This document shows positions 500 to 30,529 of a stretch of 64,000 nucleotides of DNA, piece by piece. Both the position numbers and the translations under genes were made by a program. Every line of letters starts with the position of its first letter. Position 1 is the first letter of the stretch. The notes beneath the pieces were generated by a model. The model did no database searches, was not told the origin of the DNA, and was given only the letters and a program-made list of their open reading frames with translations. This DNA comes from Deferribacterales bacterium (GTDB lineage Bacteria; Chrysiogenota; Deferribacteres; Deferribacterales; Geovibrionaceae). The DNA lies in assembly GCA_050251945.1 (NCBI GenBank), contig JBFWLW010000004.1:1-64000 (forward strand), written 5' to 3'.

Positions 500-2893
500 T
501 TAGCTGAGGAGCTGAAGAGCAAGCTGAGACTGGGAGTTTGCCTGAGATATCATGGCAACGCCGGCCTGGCTGAGTATCTGGTTTTTAGTGAAATCTGACA
601 TCTCTGAAGCCATGTCAAGGTCGCGTATCCTTGATTCGGAAGCTGTCAGGTTCTCTCTCGTAGTGTCAAGACCTGTGATGGTGTATTCAAGTCTGTTGAT
701 CTGAGCACCGATTGTCGCTCTTGCACTTGAAACTTTATTCAGCGCCGCGTCGATAGCTGTAATAGCTGATTGAGCGCTTTCCTGATCGACCATAAGCACA
801 TCGGAGAGACCCAGTGCGTCTGTGTCTGCCTGTGCGATGCTTGTGTTGATGGTCTGACCTTCGTTCGCACCGATCTGAAGTTCTGTTGAGTTGTCCACAA
901 GGTGAAGTTTGATATCTTCGGCTTCGCCTGCGTCAAACTTCATTGTCTTTTTAGTGTCATCCCAAGTAATATCAAGACCGACTGCGCTGTCTATTTCAAC
1001 GTTTACGCCTGCGATAACGTTTTTCAGAGTGTAGTCGTTAACTTTGTCGGAACCCACGGTTTTGCCTGTGTGAGCGTCTGTAACTGTAACGGTCAGTTCG
1101 CTGTTTTGTCCGTCTTGTATTTTGGCGAGTGAAAGAGCGTTTATGAGGTTCTCGTCGCCGACGAATGACAGCTGGCTGTCAACTCCGAGTTTAGCTGTCT
1201 GGATAACAAACGTGCCTTCGACCGCTTCATTGGAGTTGTCTTTTTCTGTGGTTACATAATTGACAAGGTTGTTGTTAACGTCTGAAACCGTGTCGCTTAC
1301 TGAGCTGTCCGCGCCCATGCCGAGAGCTTTGATAGCATCCGTTACTTTTGTTTCAAAGTCGGAGACAGTATCGTCGCCTTCAAGGTAGATGGTCTGTGAA
1401 GTACCGTTACCGTAGATTGTCAGTTCCTGGGTCTGGTCAAATATGTTACGTCCGTCGTCAGTAGTGAACAGAGCGATGTCTCTCAGTTTGGTTGCAGATG
1501 TTGCGATATCGCCGCCGCCTCTTACTTCAAGGTCGAAAGAACCTGTGTCGGTAAGACCTGCGGGAGTACCGCCGTTGTTGCTCGCTTCTTTGAAGTTCAT
1601 TGTCATTGAACCTATGTCAAGGTTGCCTGTTGATTCATCAAGAGCGGCGTAGTAAACGGTTACGTTGTTGTAATCAATGGTATCGTCGCCGTTGTCTGCT
1701 TTAGTCAGAGAGTTGGTAGCGGTGTACTGCAGAGTGGGTCCTGCCTGGCTGGAAGGTCCGCCGGATATCTGAATAGTACCGCCGCCGGATGTGGCAACGC
1801 CTGCGCCTGTGGAGTCGCCTGATACGCTCAGAAGTATCTTGTCGCCTTTCTGAACGTTGCCTGCCGCGCCGAGATCAATTGTAGTATCAATTGTCAGAGC
1901 GTCTCCGTCTGCATCAGTTGCGCCTGTTGCAAGACCTGTAACAGTGATTGTGCTGCCGCCCACGTTGATAGTGGTGTCGGCCCAGTCGCTTGCTTCGCCT
2001 GTTTTCGCGTTGACAAATCTCACTGAAACAGCAGCAGTACCTGAAGATGTAGTGGTGAAGTTTTCATCAAACTTGATCTCAAGGTATCCTGAATCTGAGA
2101 AGTCTGTGGAGTTTGCAGCTGCGGATGTAACGGAGAAGCTTGATCCTGCCTGAGCGTATGTAGCTGTGACAGAGGCTGAAGTCGTTTCAACAGCCGTTTC
2201 GCCCACTGTTACTGTGTAATAGCTGGTGCCTGATGTTGCGACGGTTTTAATGTCTGAAACGTTACCTACGTTAGTAGTGTTGTCAGTTCCTGCGGCAGTT
2301 GTGATCTCACCGCCGACAGCGTCGTCGTTGAGTGTCATGACGTCTGTTTTATAGACGTAGTTCTTTCCCGCTTCAACTTCGATATTCAGGTTATAGTTGC
2401 CTTCTGCAACCTTACCTGTGACATTTACGTCGATAGCAGATGTTTTGTCTGTCGACCAGAGAGCTGTTGCGTCACCGTTCAGCAGTTTCTTGGTGTTGAA
2501 CTCTGTTGATGAAGCAACGCGGTCGATTTCTTCTTTGAGCTGATCCACTTCTTTCTGGATTTCCGAACGGTCACTTGATGTGTAAACGCCGTTGGATGCC
2601 TGAACAGCGAGCTCTCTCATTCTCTGAGTCATTTCCTGAATGGTTGCCAGACCGCCTTCAGCAGTCTGAAGCATTGAAATACCGTCCTGGGCGTTCATGG
2701 AAGCTCTTTTAAGACCTGAAATCTGCCCGCGCAGTTTCTCAGAAATAGCGAGACCTGATGCGTCGTCAGCCGCGCTGTTGATTCTGAGACCTGAGGAAAG
2801 TCTTTCAAGGTTCTTGGAAATGTTGTTGCTTGTCTGATTTACATAACTCTGCGCAACGAGAGAGTTCGTGTTCGTGTAAACTGTAAGTGCCAT
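500..2893 (-). CDS. fliC: Flagellin (797 aa), copy 1
   Basis: N-term [22 protein letters not shown]...[10 protein letters not shown]-term [12 protein letters not shown]...[17 protein letters not shown]. Confidence 0.97.
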
Positions 2894-2935
2894 GATATTA
2901 CCTCCGTGTAATGATCACCGACCTCCGTGCCGGTG
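2894..2935 (-). promoter_or_regulatory. Two CsrA-type ACGGA hairpins, the second covering the SD of flagellin 1
   Basis: Minus strand CACCGGC-ACGGAG-GTCGGTG and ATTAC-ACGGAG-GTAAT directly before ATG. Confidence 0.75.
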
Positions 2936-3047
2936 GCTTTGTTAATGGCCAGTCATATTAAACTGTTGTTCCAGAGCAAAATGCCCTATATCCGATATGG
3001 ATTGAAGATTGTCTTTTAACCTCTCTGTAAAGTTATTCGCTCCAAGC

Positions 3048-3113
3048 GGAACTGAAAACAAAAAAGACCGATGCTGTATTTCCTACAGTCATCGGCCTGA
3101 GTGTTTCAGTACC
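3048..3113 (-). promoter_or_regulatory. Conserved flagellin 5'-leader terminator/attenuator, copy 1
   Basis: Minus strand GGTACTGAAACACTCAGGCCGATGACTGTAGGAAATACAGCATCGGTCTTTTTTGTTTTCAG; present upstream of all three flagellins. Confidence 0.75.
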
Positions 3114-3139
3114 TTTCATATTCTTCTGTTGTGGTATTA

Positions 3140-3167
3140 GTATCGTCATGACAAAAAGGAAACTTTA
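3140..3167 (-). promoter_or_regulatory. Sigma28 (FliA) promoter of flagellin 1
   Basis: TAAA-N16-GACGATAC on the minus strand (consensus TAAA-N15/16-GCCGATAA). Confidence 0.75.
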
Positions 3168-3242
3168 AAGAATTTTTTTGAAAAAATTTCGTGTTTTAGA
3201 AAATACCTTTATTTATTAGTAAGTTATCGTTGACAAAATAAT

Positions 3243-3330
3243 AAAAAAAGCGAACGCAACGATCCGCTCAGGTTCATGGCAGGCATTTTTTCTGCCTTAA
3301 ACCTGAGCGGACCCGAAGGTCCGCCCTTTA
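3243..3330 (-). terminator. Flagellin 2 terminator interrupted by a ~55-bp hairpin insertion
   Basis: GCGGAC-CCGAAG-GTCCGC matches the flagellin 1 terminator but is separated from its A7 tract by CCGCTCAGGTT...AACCTGAGCGG. Confidence 0.65.
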
Positions 3331-3348
3331 TATTGCGTGACTCTGCTC

Positions 3349-5742
3349 TTAGCCGAGGAGCTGAAGAGCAAGCTGAGACTGGGAGTTTGCCTGAGATATC
3401 ATGGCAACGCCAGCCTGGCTGAGTATCTGGTTTTTGGTGAAATCTGACATCTCTGAAGCCATATCAAGGTCGCGTATCCTTGATTCAGAAGCTGTCAGGT
3501 TTTCTCTTGTAGTGTCAAGACCGGTGATGGTGTATTCAAGTCTGTTGATCTGAGCACCGATTGTCGCTCTTGCACTTGATATTTTGTTCAGCGCGTTATC
3601 TATCATGGTGATAGATGACTGTGCGCTCTCCTGATCGACCATAAGCACATCAGAGAGACCCAGCGCGTCTGTGTCTGCCTGTGCGATGCTTGTGTTGATG
3701 GTCTGACCTTCGTTCGCACCGATCTGAAGCTCTGTTGAGTTGTCCACAAGGTGAAGTTTAACGTCTTCGGCATCGCCGGCTTCAAACTTCATAGCCTTTT
3801 TAGTGTCATCCCAAGAGATATCAAGACCGACTGCGCTGTCTATTTTAACATTTACACCTGCGATAACGTTTTTCAGAGTGTAGTCGTTAACTTTGTCGGA
3901 ACCCACGGTTTTACCTGTGTGGGCGTCTGTAACTGTAACTGTCAGTTCGCTGTTTTCAGCATCCTGAATCTGTACCAGTGAAAGAGCGTTGATGAGGTTT
4001 TCATCACCGACGAATGACAGCTGGCTGTCTTCGCCAAGTTTAGCTGTCTGGATAACGAACGTGCCGTCAACAGCTTCGTTGGAGTTGTCTTTCTCTGTAG
4101 TTACATAGTTGACAAGGTTGTTGTTAACATCTGAAACTGAGTCGCTTACTGAGCTGTCTGCACCCATTCCGAGAGATTTGATAGCGTCAGTCATTTTTGT
4201 TTCAAAATCTGACAGAGTATCGTCGCCTTCAAGGAAGATGGTCTGTGAAGTACCGTTTCCGTAGATTGTCAGTTCCTGAGTCTGGTCGAATATGTTACGT
4301 CCGTCGTCAGTAGTGAACAGAGCGATGTCTCTCAGTTTGGTTGCCGATGTTGCAACGTCACCGCCGCCTCTCACTTCAAGGTCTAAAGAACCTGTGTCTG
4401 TGAGACCTGTAGGAGTACCGGCGTCATTGCTCGCTTCTTTGAAGTTCATTGTCATGGAACCTATGTCAAGGTTGCCTGTTGATTCATCAAGAGCGGCATA
4501 GTAAACGGTTACGTTGTTGTAGTCGATGGTATCGTCGCCGTTGTCTGCTTTAGTCAGAGAGTTGGTAGCGGTGTACTGCAGAGTGGGTCCTGCCTGGCTG
4601 GAAGGTCCGCCGGATATCTGAATAGTACCGCCGCCGGATGTGGCAACGCCTGCACCTGTAGAGTCGCCGGATATGCTCAGAAGCACTTTGTCGCCTTTCT
4701 GAACGTTGCCCGCAACGCCGAGATCGATTGTAGTATCAATTGTCAGAGCGTCTCCGTCTGCATCAGTTGCGCCTGTTGCAAGACCTGTAACAGCGATTGT
4801 GCTGCCGCCCACAGTGATTGTGGTGTCCGCCCAGTCGCTTGCTTCGCCTGTTTTCGCGTTGACAAATCTCACTGAAACAGCAGCAGTACCTGAAGATGTA
4901 GTGGTGAAGTCTTCACCGAATTTGATCTCAAGGTATCCTGAATCTGAGAAGTCAGTGGAGTTTGCAGCGGCGGATGTAACGGAGAAGCTTGATCCTGCCT
5001 GAGCGTACGTGGCTGTGACAGAAGCTGAAGTGTTTTCAACAGCCGTTTCGCCCACTGTTACTGTGTAATAGCTGGTGCCTGATGTTGCAACTGTGTTGAT
5101 ATCTGTTACTGAGGAAACGTTGGTAGTATTGTCAGTTCCTGCGGCAGTTGTGATCTCTCCGCCGACAGCGTCTGCGTTGAGTGTCATAACGTCTGTTTTA
5201 TAAACAGCGTTTTTACCTGCTGAAACTTCGATGTTCAGGTTATAGTTGCCTTCTGCAACCTGACCTGTGACATTTACGTCAATAGCGGAAGTATTGTCTG
5301 ATGACCAGAGAGCTGTTGAATCACCGTTCAGCAGTTTCTTAGTGTTGAACTCTGTTGATGAAGCAACGCGGTCAATCTCTTCTTTAAGCTGATCCACTTC
5401 TTTCTGGATTTCCGAACGGTCGTTTGATGTGTAAACGCCGTTGGATGCCTGAACAGCGAGTTCTCTCATTCTCTGGGTCATTTCCTGAATGGTTGCCAGA
5501 CCGCCTTCAGCAGTCTGAAGCATAGAGATACCGTCCTGGGCGTTCATGGAAGCTCTTTTAAGACCTGAAATCTGCCCGCGCAGTTTCTCAGAAATAGCGA
5601 GACCTGATGCGTCGTCAGATGCGCTGTTGATTCTGAGACCTGAGGAAAGTTTCTCAAGGTTTTTGGAAATGTTGTTGCTTGTCTGGTTTACATAACTCTG
5701 CGCAACGAGAGAGTTCGTGTTCGTGTAAACTGTAAGTGCCAT
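3349..5742 (-). CDS. fliC: Flagellin (797 aa), copy 2
   Basis: Same motifs as copy 1; start moved to ATG 5742 (MALTVY, SD GGAGG) by homology with copies 1 and 3. Confidence 0.97.
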   Translation of the reverse strand: MALTVYTNTNSLVAQSYVNQTSNNISKNLEKLSSGLRINSASDDASGLAISEKLRGQISGLKRASMNAQDGISMLQTAEGGLATIQEMTQRMRELAVQASNGVYTSNDRSEIQKEVDQLKEEIDRVASSTEFNTKKLLNGDSTALWSSDNTSAIDVNVTGQVAEGNYNLNIEVSAGKNAVYKTDVMTLNADAVGGEITTAAGTDNTTNVSSVTDINTVATSGTSYYTVTVGETAVENTSASVTATYAQAGSSFSVTSAAANSTDFSDSGYLEIKFGEDFTTTSSGTAAVSVRFVNAKTGEASDWADTTITVGGSTIAVTGLATGATDADGDALTIDTTIDLGVAGNVQKGDKVLLSISGDSTGAGVATSGGGTIQISGGPSSQAGPTLQYTATNSLTKADNGDDTIDYNNVTVYYAALDESTGNLDIGSMTMNFKEASNDAGTPTGLTDTGSLDLEVRGGGDVATSATKLRDIALFTTDDGRNIFDQTQELTIYGNGTSQTIFLEGDDTLSDFETKMTDAIKSLGMGADSSVSDSVSDVNNNLVNYVTTEKDNSNEAVDGTFVIQTAKLGEDSQLSFVGDENLINALSLVQIQDAENSELTVTVTDAHTGKTVGSDKVNDYTLKNVIAGVNVKIDSAVGLDISWDDTKKAMKFEAGDAEDVKLHLVDNSTELQIGANEGQTINTSIAQADTDALGLSDVLMVDQESAQSSITMIDNALNKISSARATIGAQINRLEYTITGLDTTRENLTASESRIRDLDMASEMSDFTKNQILSQAGVAMISQANSQSQLALQLLG

Positions 5743-5786
5743 GATATTACCTCCGTGTAATATTTCACCGGCATCCGTGCCGATGA
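5743..5786 (-). promoter_or_regulatory. Two CsrA-type ACGGA hairpins before flagellin 2
   Basis: TCATCGGC-ACGGAT-GCCGGTGA and ATATTAC-ACGGAG-GTAATAT. Confidence 0.75.
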
Positions 5787-5899
5787 TAAGATGGTATGGC
5801 AAACGTTTTGCATTTGCAGAGCATAAGGCATGCTCTATTTCCGATTGTAGGTTATAGCTTCACTGTTAAAGTGCTCTTAAAAAGGATGCACCCCCATCG

Positions 5900-5966
5900 G
5901 GAACTAAAAACAAAAAAAGACCGACGCTGTATTTCATACAGTCATCGGTCTGATTGCTTCAGTACC
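5900..5966 (-). promoter_or_regulatory. Conserved flagellin 5'-leader terminator/attenuator, copy 2
   Basis: GGTACTGAAGCAATCAGACCGATGACTGTATGAAATACAGCGTCGGTCTTTTTTTGTTTTTAG. Confidence 0.75.
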
Positions 5967-5993
5967 TTTTCATATTCTTCTGTTGTGGTATTA

Positions 5994-6020
5994 GTATCGT
6001 CACCGCGAAAGGAAACTTAA
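5994..6020 (-). promoter_or_regulatory. Sigma28 promoter of flagellin 2
   Basis: TTAA-N15-GACGATAC; downstream sequence shared with the flagellin 1 leader. Confidence 0.7.
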
Positions 6021-6256
6021 CAGAAATTGTTTATTTTTTGACCACTTATTTCTATTTTTTCGAGAATCATGATTGGGCGGGGGATTGAGAGAAAAATGTC
6101 AGAAATAACTGAAAACTTTAATGTTTTATTTTTCTTAAAAATATAATGTCAAAATTAAATATTAACGTACCGGAAAAAATGCCTGAAAAATGCCCACTGC
6201 ATCAGATTGGAAAAATGAACAGAAAAGATGTGCTTCCAGCGTGACTTGCGAAATAA

Positions 6257-6284
6257 AGAAAGCGGCTCGTTGGAGCCGCTTTCT
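6257..6284 (-). terminator. Intrinsic terminator after the pilin-like gene
   Basis: AGAAAGCGGCTC-GTTG-GAGCCGCTTTCT, U-rich tail on the minus strand. Confidence 0.8.
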
Positions 6285-6306
6285 GTAAAAATTCATTATT
6301 ATATTT

Positions 6307-6852
6307 TTATTCCAGAACAATACACATTGCGCCGGATGCGGCTGTATCGGGATAGGGTGTCACAGCAGCAGCAGCAGTGGCTGTCGCCGCGTAGCGTATA
6401 TCCCCTGAATCAGGGGTGCCGTCGTCAAACTGAGTGTCTATGGATTTAATGACATCTGACATGACCGCAGAGAAACACACAAGATTGTTGTCGGAGAAGC
6501 CCATTATCTTTGCTGTGGATATTGCGGATGTTCCTGTGGTGCCGCCGCCGAAAACGTTGTTAGGTTCAGTTTCGCCGTTGCCTGAATAGAGATTTTCGTC
6601 TCTGAGGTCACCCCAGAACGTGCTTGTGCCCGTATCTATTTTACCGTTAGAATCAGCATCGCCGGCTATTGTTCCGGTTCTGTCAAAATAAGTCATATAC
6701 GCAGTCTGAATGTTCTGGTATTCTCTGTAGAGCTTCTTGGTTTTCGCACTTTTAACCAGTTCGGTGCCTTTCACCACGCCGCCAAGAATAACTCCTATGA
6801 TAACAAGCACGATAGCAAGTTCTACCAGTGTAAAACCTTTGCTGTTGTTCAT
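6307..6852 (-). CDS. Type IV pilin/pseudopilin with prepilin cleavage-methylation motif
   Basis: KG|FTLVELAIVLVIIGVILGG class III signal; two C-terminal Cys; SD AGGAGG. Confidence 0.9.
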   Translation of the reverse strand: MNNSKGFTLVELAIVLVIIGVILGGVVKGTELVKSAKTKKLYREYQNIQTAYMTYFDRTGTIAGDADSNGKIDTGTSTFWGDLRDENLYSGNGETEPNNVFGGGTTGTSAISTAKIMGFSDNNLVCFSAVMSDVIKSIDTQFDDGTPDSGDIRYAATATAAAAVTPYPDTAASGAMCIVLE

Positions 6853-28109: not shown

Positions 28110-28152
28110 GATATACCTCCATGTTGGTTTGGTGTCGGCGTCCGTGCCGGCA
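28110..28152 (-). promoter_or_regulatory. CsrA-type GGA sites before flagellin 3
   Basis: TGCCGGC-ACGGAC-GCCGACA hairpin and ACATGGAGGT over the SD. Confidence 0.7.
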
Positions 28153-28231
28153 GTACTAAATTGTTGTGCGTCGAAAATTGCCGTTTTTAAAGAAACTCAA
28201 TAACCATTGGCAAGCCGATAAATCCTCCTCG

Positions 28232-28292
28232 TGAAAACAAAAAAGACCGATGCTCCGTTGTACGGATGCATCGGTCTGATTGTTTCAGTACC
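28232..28292 (-). promoter_or_regulatory. Conserved flagellin 5'-leader terminator/attenuator, copy 3
   Basis: GGTACTGAAACAATCAGACCGATGCATCCGTACAACGGAGCATCGGTCTTTTTTGTTTTCA. Confidence 0.75.
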
Positions 28293-28365
28293 GTTTTTTC
28301 AAAATGTTTCCTGCGAAACCCTTGTCCAAGGGGCTTTACAGGGATTCATGGTTTTACTGAGAATA

Positions 28366-28392
28366 ATATCGGCAGAAATATTGATAACTTTA
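28366..28392 (-). promoter_or_regulatory. Sigma28 promoter of flagellin 3
   Basis: TAAA-N15-GCCGATAT, near-perfect consensus. Confidence 0.85.
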
Positions 28393-28633
28393 GAAATTGA
28401 CGTAATTATTTCGTCATAGATGATAATGATAAGAAAATGTTCCGGGCTTTATCAAAATTTACAAGACTTTAACCACACTAAAACTCCACAATAATTTTTT
28501 TACCGTTATGTAATCGGACATTAAAGCAAATACTTTTGCTTATTTTTTCATCAATTCAAAAAAAATATAAATTATTGACGGTTTATGCAGGCGGCAGGTA
28601 TTATTTTTCTATTCTAAACGGAGACGACGCCAC

Positions 28634-30529
28634 ATGAATGTAAGAGAAAAGAACCTGAATGTATTGCAGACAAGATATCCTGAAATATATAAAAGGGTGG
28701 CGGCTTTGCCGCAAAGCTCAAACTATGAGATAGTGCTGCCGCAGCGTGCGGGTATCGTGCCGAATATGCGCAACAAAACCACAGGAAGACTGTTCTATAA
28801 CGGTTTTAACCCCATGGCAGACGTTGAACAGGATCTCAGGTCGAGAAATATGAGGGTGAAGCAGTTCAACATTTTTCTCGGATGCGGCTTCATGTATCAG
28901 GTCTTTGCGATGTTCAAAATGTTCTCTATTCAGGGCGGATTGCACGTCATAATAGAAAAGAACGTGGACGCTTTCCGTTTTGTTCTGAATACTGTGGATA
29001 TTTCCGAAATGCTGGAGAACGGCAACACTCTCTTTTTTGTGGGCGAAGAACTGCCTGTGATATATACGCAGATGGTTAACGTACTTACGGCAACAGATTC
29101 AAAATTCTTTATAAAGACTATAAATTTTATCGAACAGCCCGTGGCGTTTTCCGAGAACAAGGAGTATTACCTCGACGTTGTCAGAACGATGAAAAGCGTC
29201 GTTAAGGAACTGCTTAATTATTTCGGAAACGACCCGCACGATTCGATGATAGGCATAGAACACACTTTTCTGAACATAGAGGAGATATTCGGGCATCCGG
29301 GGATAAACCAGCTTAAGGATGTTTTCAGAGGAAGACCGGGAGTTGTTGTAGCAACCGGACCTTCGCTGAACAGGAACGTGGAGTTGCTTCATGAGATATA
29401 CGACAGGGCTGTCATAGTCGGGGTGGATGCATCCCTTCGTGTTCTGAACAGGCGCGGTCTGAAACCTCATATGGTCTGTTCGCTTGAAAGGGTTGCTGCC
29501 ACATCAAAGCTGTTCGCAGATTTTGAAGACAACGTGTTCGAGGATGTATATTTTGCCGGAACACCTGTGGTTCACCCGCAGACATATGCAAACTTCAAAG
29601 GCAAACGCATAGTGGTTTACAGAAATTTCGCCACGTTCAAGTGGCTGGGCATAGAAAAGGGTATACTGGATATCGGACCCTCTTCGGGTAACATGTCGTT
29701 CAAACTGCTGGAATATATGGGATGTGACCCGATAATTCTCATAGGTCAGGATCTTGCATTCGGAGAGGACGGAAACACCCATGCCACAGGCAGTACATAC
29801 GGTGAGAAGGAGTCCGGCAACTTCAGCTATGCCGATGCGAATTCAGTTATGGTTGAGGGCAATTATGTGCCTCAGCTTCGTTCTTCAAAGGTCTGGAATA
29901 CCTTCCTTAACTATTACCACAAAGACGTCGTAAACTCGAAAGCAAGGGTTATAAACGCAACTGAGGGCGGAGCGAAGATACACGGTACTCAGCTTATGAC
30001 GTTCCGCGAGGCGATCGACAGATATATCGGCGAAAGTTTCAATCCGCTCGGTGTCATAGAGAGCACTCTTAAATATCCGGATGACGAGGTGCAGGACTCA
30101 CAGCGCCGCATGGTTCTGGATAAGGTCAATCAGGGGCTTGATACCTGTCGCCGCTCCATAACCGTGTTTAAGGACGCATACGCGCTGACAGACAGATATT
30201 TCACTGATGTCTGGATGCCCGCGCAGGACGGCAAGCCTTACGATGTTGAAAAAGGACTGGAACTGCTGGTTAAGATGGAGGATGCGAACGAGATATTTAA
30301 AGCGCCCGACTTTTTCAATGTTCTGATGCATTACGTTCAGTCATACGCCATCCGCACGCTTATTGAAGTTAACAATATACAGAACGAGGATGTTGCCGAG
30401 GACAAGAGACAGTTCAAAACGGCGCACGTTTTCAGGGATATGTATGCGGTAATGATTCAGCTTATAGAAAAGATGGAGCAGCTCCTTTCAATTCTGAAAC
30501 AGAATCTGGAAAAGAACATTAAAGCCTGA
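28634..30529 (+). CDS. Maf / DUF115 (MptE-like) motility-associated flagellin glycosyltransferase
   Basis: VVVATGPSL, GLKPHMV, GCDPIILIGQDLAF, VINATEGGAKI; divergent from flagellin 3. Confidence 0.88.
   Translation: MNVREKNLNVLQTRYPEIYKRVAALPQSSNYEIVLPQRAGIVPNMRNKTTGRLFYNGFNPMADVEQDLRSRNMRVKQFNIFLGCGFMYQVFAMFKMFSIQGGLHVIIEKNVDAFRFVLNTVDISEMLENGNTLFFVGEELPVIYTQMVNVLTATDSKFFIKTINFIEQPVAFSENKEYYLDVVRTMKSVVKELLNYFGNDPHDSMIGIEHTFLNIEEIFGHPGINQLKDVFRGRPGVVVATGPSLNRNVELLHEIYDRAVIVGVDASLRVLNRRGLKPHMVCSLERVAATSKLFADFEDNVFEDVYFAGTPVVHPQTYANFKGKRIVVYRNFATFKWLGIEKGILDIGPSSGNMSFKLLEYMGCDPIILIGQDLAFGEDGNTHATGSTYGEKESGNFSYADANSVMVEGNYVPQLRSSKVWNTFLNYYHKDVVNSKARVINATEGGAKIHGTQLMTFREAIDRYIGESFNPLGVIESTLKYPDDEVQDSQRRMVLDKVNQGLDTCRRSITVFKDAYALTDRYFTDVWMPAQDGKPYDVEKGLELLVKMEDANEIFKAPDFFNVLMHYVQSYAIRTLIEVNNIQNEDVAEDKRQFKTAHVFRDMYAVMIQLIEKMEQLLSILKQNLEKNIKA

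Follow-up and report, generated by a model that had tools for sequence, protein, structure and literature searches.

Flagellin is among the costliest proteins of a motile cell, and its known controls act on initiation, through sigma28 and FlgM, and on translation, through CsrA and FliW. We analysed the first 64,000 nucleotides of a contig of a Deferribacterales bacterium (JBFWLW010000004.1; this whole stretch is called the window below), in which three flagellin genes are each preceded by a conserved RNA unit that consists of the sequence GGUR, a 4-bp hairpin (P1) with a 5-nt loop, a GC-rich hairpin and a tract of U6-7, and that begins with a 24-nt box (GGTACTGAARCAMTCAGRCCGATG). The unit is likely a leader transcription attenuator, in which a 20-nt hairpin and an intrinsic terminator compete for three to five bases.

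Among described leaders, the ribonucleic antiterminator (RAT) comes nearest in design (PMC5393181): as in the unit, a hairpin just upstream of the terminator shares its 3' bases with the terminator 5' arm, has a variable apical loop and a conserved non-helical element in its stem, forms first and is displaced by the terminator 3' arm. The RAT is 29-33 nt long, with two conserved internal loops and a terminator overlap of 6-10 nt (PMC5393181), whereas the hairpin of the unit has 20 nt, a single purine bulge of 1 nt and an overlap of 3-5 nt. Its genes are flagellins and not sugar genes, no CAT_RBD protein was found in the genome, and a RAT of the BglG-SacY-LicT kind was rejected on these grounds. 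The upper part of the RAT (UACUG-loop-CAGGC) also resembles the box.

The hydroxymethylpyrimidine pyrophosphate (HMP-PP) thiS class is, like the unit, a compact terminator-like element that is associated with few genes and can adopt another conserved fold, in which the stem is broken close to the U run (PMC6478431); thiS has, however, a conserved terminator loop and a pseudoknot, whereas in the unit the loops vary, only GGUR and RCCG are fixed and the gene context suggests no ligand. Premature termination in a flagellar-gene leader, the feature shared with the unit, occurs at C. difficile flgB, where the cyclic di-GMP (c-di-GMP)-I riboswitch Cdi1_3 gives rise to a short RNA and a read-through mRNA (PMC3649979). 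Cdi1_3 is a GEMM aptamer of ~100 nt before an early flagellar operon, in contrast to the 20-nt hairpin before late flagellin genes, which has no GEMM match. The original prediction, made from the letters of the window, did not recognise a leader terminator as a described layer of flagellin control; flgB shows that leader termination is known in principle for flagellar operons, and no description of leader termination for flagellin genes or with this RNA was found in the open-access literature searched. The sigma28-dependent small RNAs (sRNAs) that derive from untranslated regions in E. coli are likewise short RNAs from flagellar genes (PMC10578931); they act by base pairing through conserved seeds, whereas for the unit we found no seed or target, and units stand in series within one leader.

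Rfam 15, which includes GEMM, Termite-flg and flg-Rhizobiales, gave no match at gathering score in the window, and a search of six loci with E up to 10 returned chance-level matches only, the best overlapping one being BcKCsr2 with 24.3 bits against a gathering score of 40. A match to a characterised family, which would have spoken against the original prediction, was thus not obtained.

The three flagellin genes encode proteins of ~797 aa that contain both Flagellin_N and Flagellin_C. Like all features below for which no strand is given, they are on the minus strand, and they start with ATG at 2893-2891, 5742-5740 and 28109-28107. The TTG start at 5802 that an open reading frame (ORF) lister gives for flagellin 2 (ORF 3349-5802) is an over-extension; paralog alignment fixes the ATG at 5742, so that the leader is 5743-6020, as first proposed. 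Reading and aligning the minus strand, we found the same order of parts in all three leaders: a sigma28-type promoter, the 24-nt box, a hairpin, U6-7 with GUUUU, a divergent spacer of 120-160 nt, a GGA-loop hairpin and a GGA-bearing Shine-Dalgarno sequence (SD). The promoters were placed at 3139..3168 (TAAAGTT...GACGATAC, by pattern match and sequence reading), 5993..6021 (pattern match) and 28365..28393 (TAAAGTT-N14-CCGATAT, pattern match). The pattern AAGTT-N13-16-CGATA matches three times in the 64-kb window against 0.59 expected, in each case at a flagellin leader and solely upstream of the box (3141-3165, 5995-6018 and 28367-28390), which bears out the predicted sigma28 promoter at each gene, and the layout CTAAAGTT...CGATA is also present in relatives. 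No sigma70-like site was found between terminator and ATG in the three leaders. The genes upstream of the leaders end in terminators of their own, and therefore the leader hairpin is not the terminator of a neighbour.

The box occupies 3090-3113, 5943-5966 and 28269-28292, and its predicted antiterminator hairpins lie at 3094..3113 (-4.9 kcal/mol), 5947..5966 (-5.3 kcal/mol) and 28273..28292 (-5.3 kcal/mol). In copy 1, GGU is at 3113-3111, the bulged A at 3110, P1 pairs 3109-3106 with 3100-3097 around the loop 3105-3101, and RCC is at 3096-3094. The terminator-type hairpins follow at 3055..3098 in copy 1 (hairpin 3098-3064, U6 3065-3060, then GUUUU; -19.8 kcal/mol), at 5912..5951 in copy 2 (with U7 at 5918-5912; -19.7 kcal/mol) and at 28234..28277 in copy 3 (U6 28244-28239, then GUUUU; -23.7 kcal/mol). 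CsrA-type sites complete the leaders at 2900..2935 (GGA-loop hairpin 2935-2916, GGA-bearing SD 2909-2900), 5749..5785 (hairpin 5785-5766, SD 5758-5749) and 28115..28149 (hairpin 28149-28136, SD 28124-28115). This 3' half has the hag-type CsrA/FliW pattern, with a GGA hairpin and GGA in the SD as in the B. subtilis hag leader, and csrA and fliW are both in the genome, adjacent to each other. The hag leader is not known to carry a box or a terminator unit ahead of its CsrA sites.

Folding of the whole units gave -28.8 to -30.7 kcal/mol (z -4.2 to -4.9), and none of 200 shuffles was equally stable. The GC-rich hairpins (-19.7 to -23.7 kcal/mol) are directly followed by U6-7 and their stem covaries, as expected of intrinsic terminators; RNAalifold supports the terminator stem. 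The apical stem differs in sequence between copies 1 and 2 on the one hand and copy 3 on the other with pairing kept, in line with the covariation noticed originally, and the small CUGA-N5-UCAG hairpin, first noticed at the terminator base, was confirmed and shows covariation among relatives. Across 90 model-aligned units, 99.4% of the P1 cells were paired, and each of the four P1 pairs has sequences in which both partners differ (32, 20, 28 and 7 of them, respectively). For the lower terminator stem the paired share was 97.9%, and slid and shuffled controls were far lower. Among 121 distinct units that were parsed, P1 occurs in 20 real pair combinations (a 21st is the mis-parsed row L224), and the P1 loop has about 30 variants and is a pentaloop in 118. 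The flanks are nearly constant: 114 units have GGU as the 5' triplet, 112 have GCC or ACC as the 3' triplet, and the bulged base is A in 112 and G in 7. A U tract of at least 5 follows nearly all aligned units, as judged by eye.

The terminator 5' arm begins with the triplet RCC, which can also pair with GGU, and the two triplets are pairable in 119 of the 121 units. Five well-parsed units have another 5' triplet (three AGU, one GAU, one GGC): three units of family f6, from as many genomes (L240, L237, L207), combine AGU with GCU and have a terminator 3' arm altered to match; two genera of family f7 have GAU opposite GUC (L223 by parsing, L224 by inspection); and one unit has GGC with GCU. One weak match, L190:534, has a mismatch. 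When transcripts were folded as they grow, the GGU-A-P1-RCC hairpin (-4.9 to -5.3 kcal/mol) was the minimum free energy (MFE) structure until the last ~4 nt of the terminator arm were made, after which the terminator took over. A conserved second helix thus shares bases with the terminator 5' arm, and the two mutually exclusive helices therefore have the layout of a terminator/antiterminator attenuator. In single-sequence MFE folds there is also a putative outer helix, in which ACUGAAAC pairs with GUUUUCAGU beyond the U tract; its UUUCAG recurs in several genera and is not found in the Planctomycetota or metagenome copies described below.

The unit is bound to flagellin genes throughout its order. 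With up to 3 mismatches, the box occurs in three places of the 3.07-Mb genome, all of them flagellin leaders, and the reversed control gave none; together with the alignment and the folds, this confirms a conserved terminator-containing leader on all three flagellins, and the motif is not scattered through the genome; scatter would have told against the original prediction. In the family, the box is present in 16 of 16 genomes, and at 30 of 31 loci examined a hairpin, a U tract and a flagellin start follow, the exception (L020) being a three-mismatch match inside a gene. Of 68 genomes from the phylum, 48 have the unit according to a covariance model of box and terminator (R1) and 54 according to a second model (R2), which was built from 90 matches. 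By family, R2 matched 15/15 genomes in f1, 4/6 in f2, 4/4 in f3, 2/4 in f5, 2/3 in f4, 6/7 in f6 and 20/21 in f7, and none of the 7 genomes in f8-f10. The covariance search that had been suggested therefore extends the flagellin linkage to seven families of Deferribacterales, where the unit stands nearly always before flagellin genes, and public records titled Seleniivibrio, Denitrovibrio, Calditerrivibrio and Deferribacter carry it. Flagellin_N was found in 65 of the 68 genomes; the three genomes of f1-f7 that have no Flagellin_N (G022, G034, G036) are also without the unit, and in these families the motif is missing from four more genomes, which are fragmented or have a completeness of 86-92%.

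At 26 loci of f5-f7, two to four units stand in series before the flagellin start, and no unit after the first in a series has its own promoter. In the genome of the window all three flagellins have the unit, the fourth Flagellin_N match being FlgL, and there is no further flagellin. Each family relative, in contrast, has one further flagellin with no R1 match nearby (~820 aa; L215-L218 in G014, G008, G001 and G013), the short leader of which (~65 nt) has a sigma28 promoter, a CsrA-type hairpin and an SD and no unit in 4 of 4 inspected. This leader resembles the hag leader in having the CsrA part only and no box, and from this unit-less fourth paralog we conclude that the unit is a separable add-on module on some flagellin genes.

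Two further arrangements were seen in this order. The Deferribacter-type leaders (L116, L119, L121, L126, L130) are 250-330 nt long; between unit and CsrA hairpin they contain GAACGTTGAAC-like repeats in tandem as well as long inverted repeats. At L202 (G053:C12), a unit with P1 UUAC/GUAA follows a sigma70-like promoter and lies ~350 nt before a Ser/Thr/Asn-rich frame of 116 aa, which looks FlgM-like by eye and has no Pfam match.

Outside Deferribacterales, an exact-pattern scan of species genomes gave 69 matches, which is about the chance expectation (34 bits on 2 x 596 Gb). They comprise 21 Deferribacterales-titled matches and 2 Planctomycetota matches with a terminator, 21 near-identical matches of Ruminococcus/Oscillospiraceae type and 25 scattered ones; the 23 in which the box is fused to a terminator are not explained by chance. 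The Ruminococcus/Oscillospiraceae/Lachnospiraceae records, with one Treponema-titled record (L032, L035, L046 and 18 other loci), have the exact 20-nt box followed by an SD and an ORF and no terminator; this shared sequence is probably a widely shared mobile element that matches the box by chance. The model locates six units in the two Planctomycetota genomes; they precede DUF3987 genes, the gene of a DUF11 surface protein and a lipoprotein-like gene, and their P1 shows covariation, as CUGG/CCAG. Among sampled Planctomycetota, 3 of 151 genomes have the unit, and the neighbourhoods of three Planctomycetota copies hold no common candidate regulator. A metagenome scan returned 51 loci, of which a script flagged 19 and 18 were accepted as box plus terminator, the rest lying in apparent coding sequence. 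These units are mostly 10-30 nt before the SD of phage-like genes (Mu-type portal, DUF3987, tail-fibre-like and capsid-like proteins), and some contigs hold two copies, among them those of L149/L187 and of L169/L182; the strict box pattern gave no match in viral contigs. The unit is thus lineage-wide and flagellin-bound in Deferribacterales and sporadic and mobile-looking elsewhere, and it is not flagellin-specific, because it also precedes phage-like and surface-protein genes in Planctomycetota and metagenomes. That the unit also precedes phage-like genes outside its own phylum hints that it is a regulatory module of wider use, so far uncatalogued.

Transcript contigs were taken from four small wastewater runs that are labelled RNA-Seq, whose RNA nature is a guess and none of which is on record as RNA. 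Of the words sampled from the flagellin 1-2 region, 19-29% are present in these runs, and the flagellin genes are covered by contigs. Contigs X3 (2883-3118) and X6 (2908-3117) match without mismatches; they begin 4-5 nt before the box, cross the terminator and reach the flagellin 1 start codon. Contig X4 (5750-5961) connects the start of flagellin 2 with the box in its leader. In a 16-kb control stretch, contigs were nearly confined to flagellin 3, and a single one of low depth ends there at 28211, 13 nt past a GAGGAGG box. None of the four runs has contigs in the intergenic regions 3214-3414 and 6028-6400, in most housekeeping genes around flagellin 3 or in the flagellin 3 leader beyond 28211; these uncovered stretches fit the runs being RNA and prove nothing. 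If the runs are RNA, the contigs that span box to flagellin 1 mean that read-through molecules exist in nature, and they argue against a transcription start downstream of the hairpin, which would have undone the original prediction.

We conclude that the unit is a new, covariation-supported RNA motif of the attenuator kind, the mechanism of which we infer as follows. By default the strong terminator would stop sigma28 transcripts after about 70-120 nt. A reader factor, more likely a protein than a small ligand, would keep GGU paired with RCC; the terminator base could then not form beside the U tract, and the polymerase would enter the flagellin leader; after read-through, translation would remain under CsrA/FliW, and two to four units in series would sharpen the response. 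The separable module, the serial units, the compensated GGU:RCC changes and the folding order count for an attenuator, and we put forward such a factor-dependent attenuator tentatively, at slightly less than an even chance. Compared with the original prediction of a leader attenuator or sRNA, the flagellin-linked leader, the genuine terminator-type hairpin and the competing upstream hairpin stand, and the reading as an ANTAR-like hexaloop and the version with a NusG paralog are not supported. If the proposal is true, a third layer of flagellin control acts on elongation, in a phylum (including gut Deferribacterota) whose gene regulation is barely studied, and filament synthesis may pass a third checkpoint, as was first suggested. 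It is possible, although we would sooner doubt than accept it, that an undescribed antitermination system, shared across phyla, senses its signal through the GGUR-P1-RCC hairpin, by way of a new RNA-binding antiterminator or of a tiny terminator-embedded riboswitch; it would serve as a transcriptional flagellin checkpoint after sigma28/FlgM and before CsrA/FliW and would also gate phage-like structural genes. The motif is short and well defined, and the unit-less paralog is a natural control, which makes the proposal amenable to direct testing.

Several points weigh against a factor-dependent attenuator. No effector was found: CAT_RBD (PF03123) has 0 matches in the 99.97% complete genome, with a control that matched in 4 of 14 genomes; NusG is present in a single copy; and the flgM-csrA operon, inspected for a candidate effector, is an ordinary flagellar operon with CsrA, FliW and FlgM and no unusual neighbour. 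The antiterminator helix is worth about -5 kcal/mol against -20 to -24 kcal/mol for the terminator and should not be able to prevent termination alone. GGU:RCC is near-invariant, with support from five or six sequences of two or three lineages, and the variable P1 loop leaves few specific contacts beyond GGUR and RCC. The pair counts come from alignments fitted to the model structure, which favours that structure, and a simple terminator scanner omits the three leader hairpins, because a 1-nt bulge interrupts their stems. Genera g15 and g16 (L223 and L224; G049 and G050) keep box and hairpin without a U tract. As to the transcript data, the run contigs cannot reveal 3' ends, levels or strands, and in the four runs the flagellin 3 terminator is not spanned by any contig. 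Of 64 script-chosen last units, 30 are followed within 60 nt by a GGAGG-like box, a number to be read with the caveat that the regular expression over-counts last units and against an estimated chance rate of ~7%, and the position of the unit before phage-like portal, DUF3987 and surface-protein genes also fits a general expression or stability element.

The U-tract-less units have, besides, the box variant GAUA...GUC, a much longer hairpin and a conserved GACGAGGGGGAG after it.

The factor-dependent attenuator has to be weighed first against a constitutive leaky terminator, which we consider unlikely, although less so than the other alternatives. Here a strong terminator directly after a strong promoter would yield a short leader RNA of about 70-120 nt (an sRNA or a protein sponge) and a fixed fraction of full-length mRNA, GGU:RCC would only tune the leak, and nothing would antiterminate. 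The A/purine-rich stretch, hairpin and U tail do resemble the ends of Hfq-type sRNAs, Hfq genes are present, sRNAs of this origin under sigma28 are known in E. coli (PMC10578931), and read-through molecules in situ, if the runs are RNA, would be expected from a leak as well. Promoterless later units in a series, on the other hand, suit serial gating better than sRNA genes, and the compensated GGU:RCC changes favour a working switch. Nor is there a sign of an sRNA seed in the box: its complements are not enriched at the start regions of the genome (TCAGTACC occurs 57 times against ~94 expected), matches to the 9-mer complement fall mostly in one repeat protein or in the loci themselves, and the loop, the usual seed, is not conserved. 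Hfq is encoded canonically at C1:30769-30954, and a second locus (G000:C3:272125-272556) has two tandem Hfq-domain matches in one frame of 182 aa.

A leader peptide with ribosome-mediated attenuation was also considered and rejected, as the AUG in the semi-conserved AAUAUGAAA upstream of the box is inconsistent by eye: it opens short frames in flagellins 1 and 2, L004 and L009, and is absent or in another frame in L007, L012 and all copies of the flagellin 3 type. No conserved leader ORF was seen by eye in the family loci.

Bacillus leaders such as the aprE leader and the STAB-SD of cry3A are stabilised by a 5' stem-loop together with ribosome binding. By analogy, the unit could be an mRNA stabiliser or processing module, in which the 5'-proximal hairpins and an SD-like GGAGGUG box protect an abundant mRNA from 5' decay and the U tract is secondary. 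The frequency of GGAGG-like boxes after last units, with no conserved ORF behind them by eye, would agree with such a role, as would the U-tract-less variants that keep box and hairpin, the position near the SD of highly expressed phage structural and surface-protein genes, and the end of the one low-depth flagellin 3 contig 13 nt after GAGGAGG. We nevertheless regard it as quite improbable, since a stabiliser does not need the U tract of at least 5 that follows nearly all units, requires neither an invariant GGUR nor a competing helix, hardly explains serial units, and would largely be without its GGAGG box in f7 (by rows read by eye, the box is mostly found in f1-f5 and rare in f7). The SD-like GGAGGUG/GGGGGUG box itself, often in the loop of a small hairpin, lies 5-55 nt past the terminator, in copy 2 as GGGGGUG in a small hairpin directly after it (5885..5898) and in copy 3 as GAGGAGG (28224..28230); it could serve as an additional CsrA site or as a stabiliser that binds ribosomes.

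Units in series are reported for tandem riboswitches (PMC9481103). Mixed gene contexts are a trait of c-di-GMP riboswitches. Both recall the unit, with its serial copies and its flagellin, phage and surface-protein genes, and a terminator-embedded mini-riboswitch that reads a small ligand, conceivably a second messenger, would also fit the logic of the thiS class, where a specialised terminator is tied to a small set of genes and can refold so that its stem opens beside the U run (PMC6478431). Conservation in the unit is limited to about 10 nucleotides, however, its terminator and P1 loops vary freely where the thiS loop is conserved (PMC6478431), and no Rfam riboswitch model matches, so that we hold there to be little prospect of a riboswitch of this type.

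In the genome, ANTAR (PF03861) has no match, but the control for this search was silent in 14 of 14 genomes. ANTAR targets are defined by two hairpins with hexaloops that carry A1 and G4. A hairpin upstream of a terminator in a 5' leader is what an ANTAR target or a recruitment site for a NusG paralog (LoaP- or RfaH-like) would also present, but we judge both highly implausible and rejected them, since there is a single hairpin, whose loop has five bases in 118 of 121 units, the ACUGAA once proposed as an A1/G4 hexaloop is a strand of the covarying P1 stem and is replaced where P1 changes (e.g. by UUAA or UCAA), LoaP uses UNCG-type hairpins that act at a distance (PMC12691694), the pentaloops of the unit are not UNCG, the genome encodes a single NusG, and a box on every serial unit points to local rather than processive action.

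Around flagellin 3, we observed some further features. An extra hairpin with a GGAC loop lies between promoter and box (28319..28332) and is kept in the same-genus copies L014, L015, L027 and L031. Just upstream of the sigma28 promoter there is a sigma70-like promoter match (10/12) at 28426-28455, in the divergent region common to a Maf-like gene (28634-30529, plus strand). In addition, the 9-mer TTTCGACGC at 28168-28176 recurs across genera in spacers of the flagellin 3 type, with three copies at L022, two near-copies at L023 and further occurrences at L006, L019, L021 and L031, and could be a protein or sRNA site.

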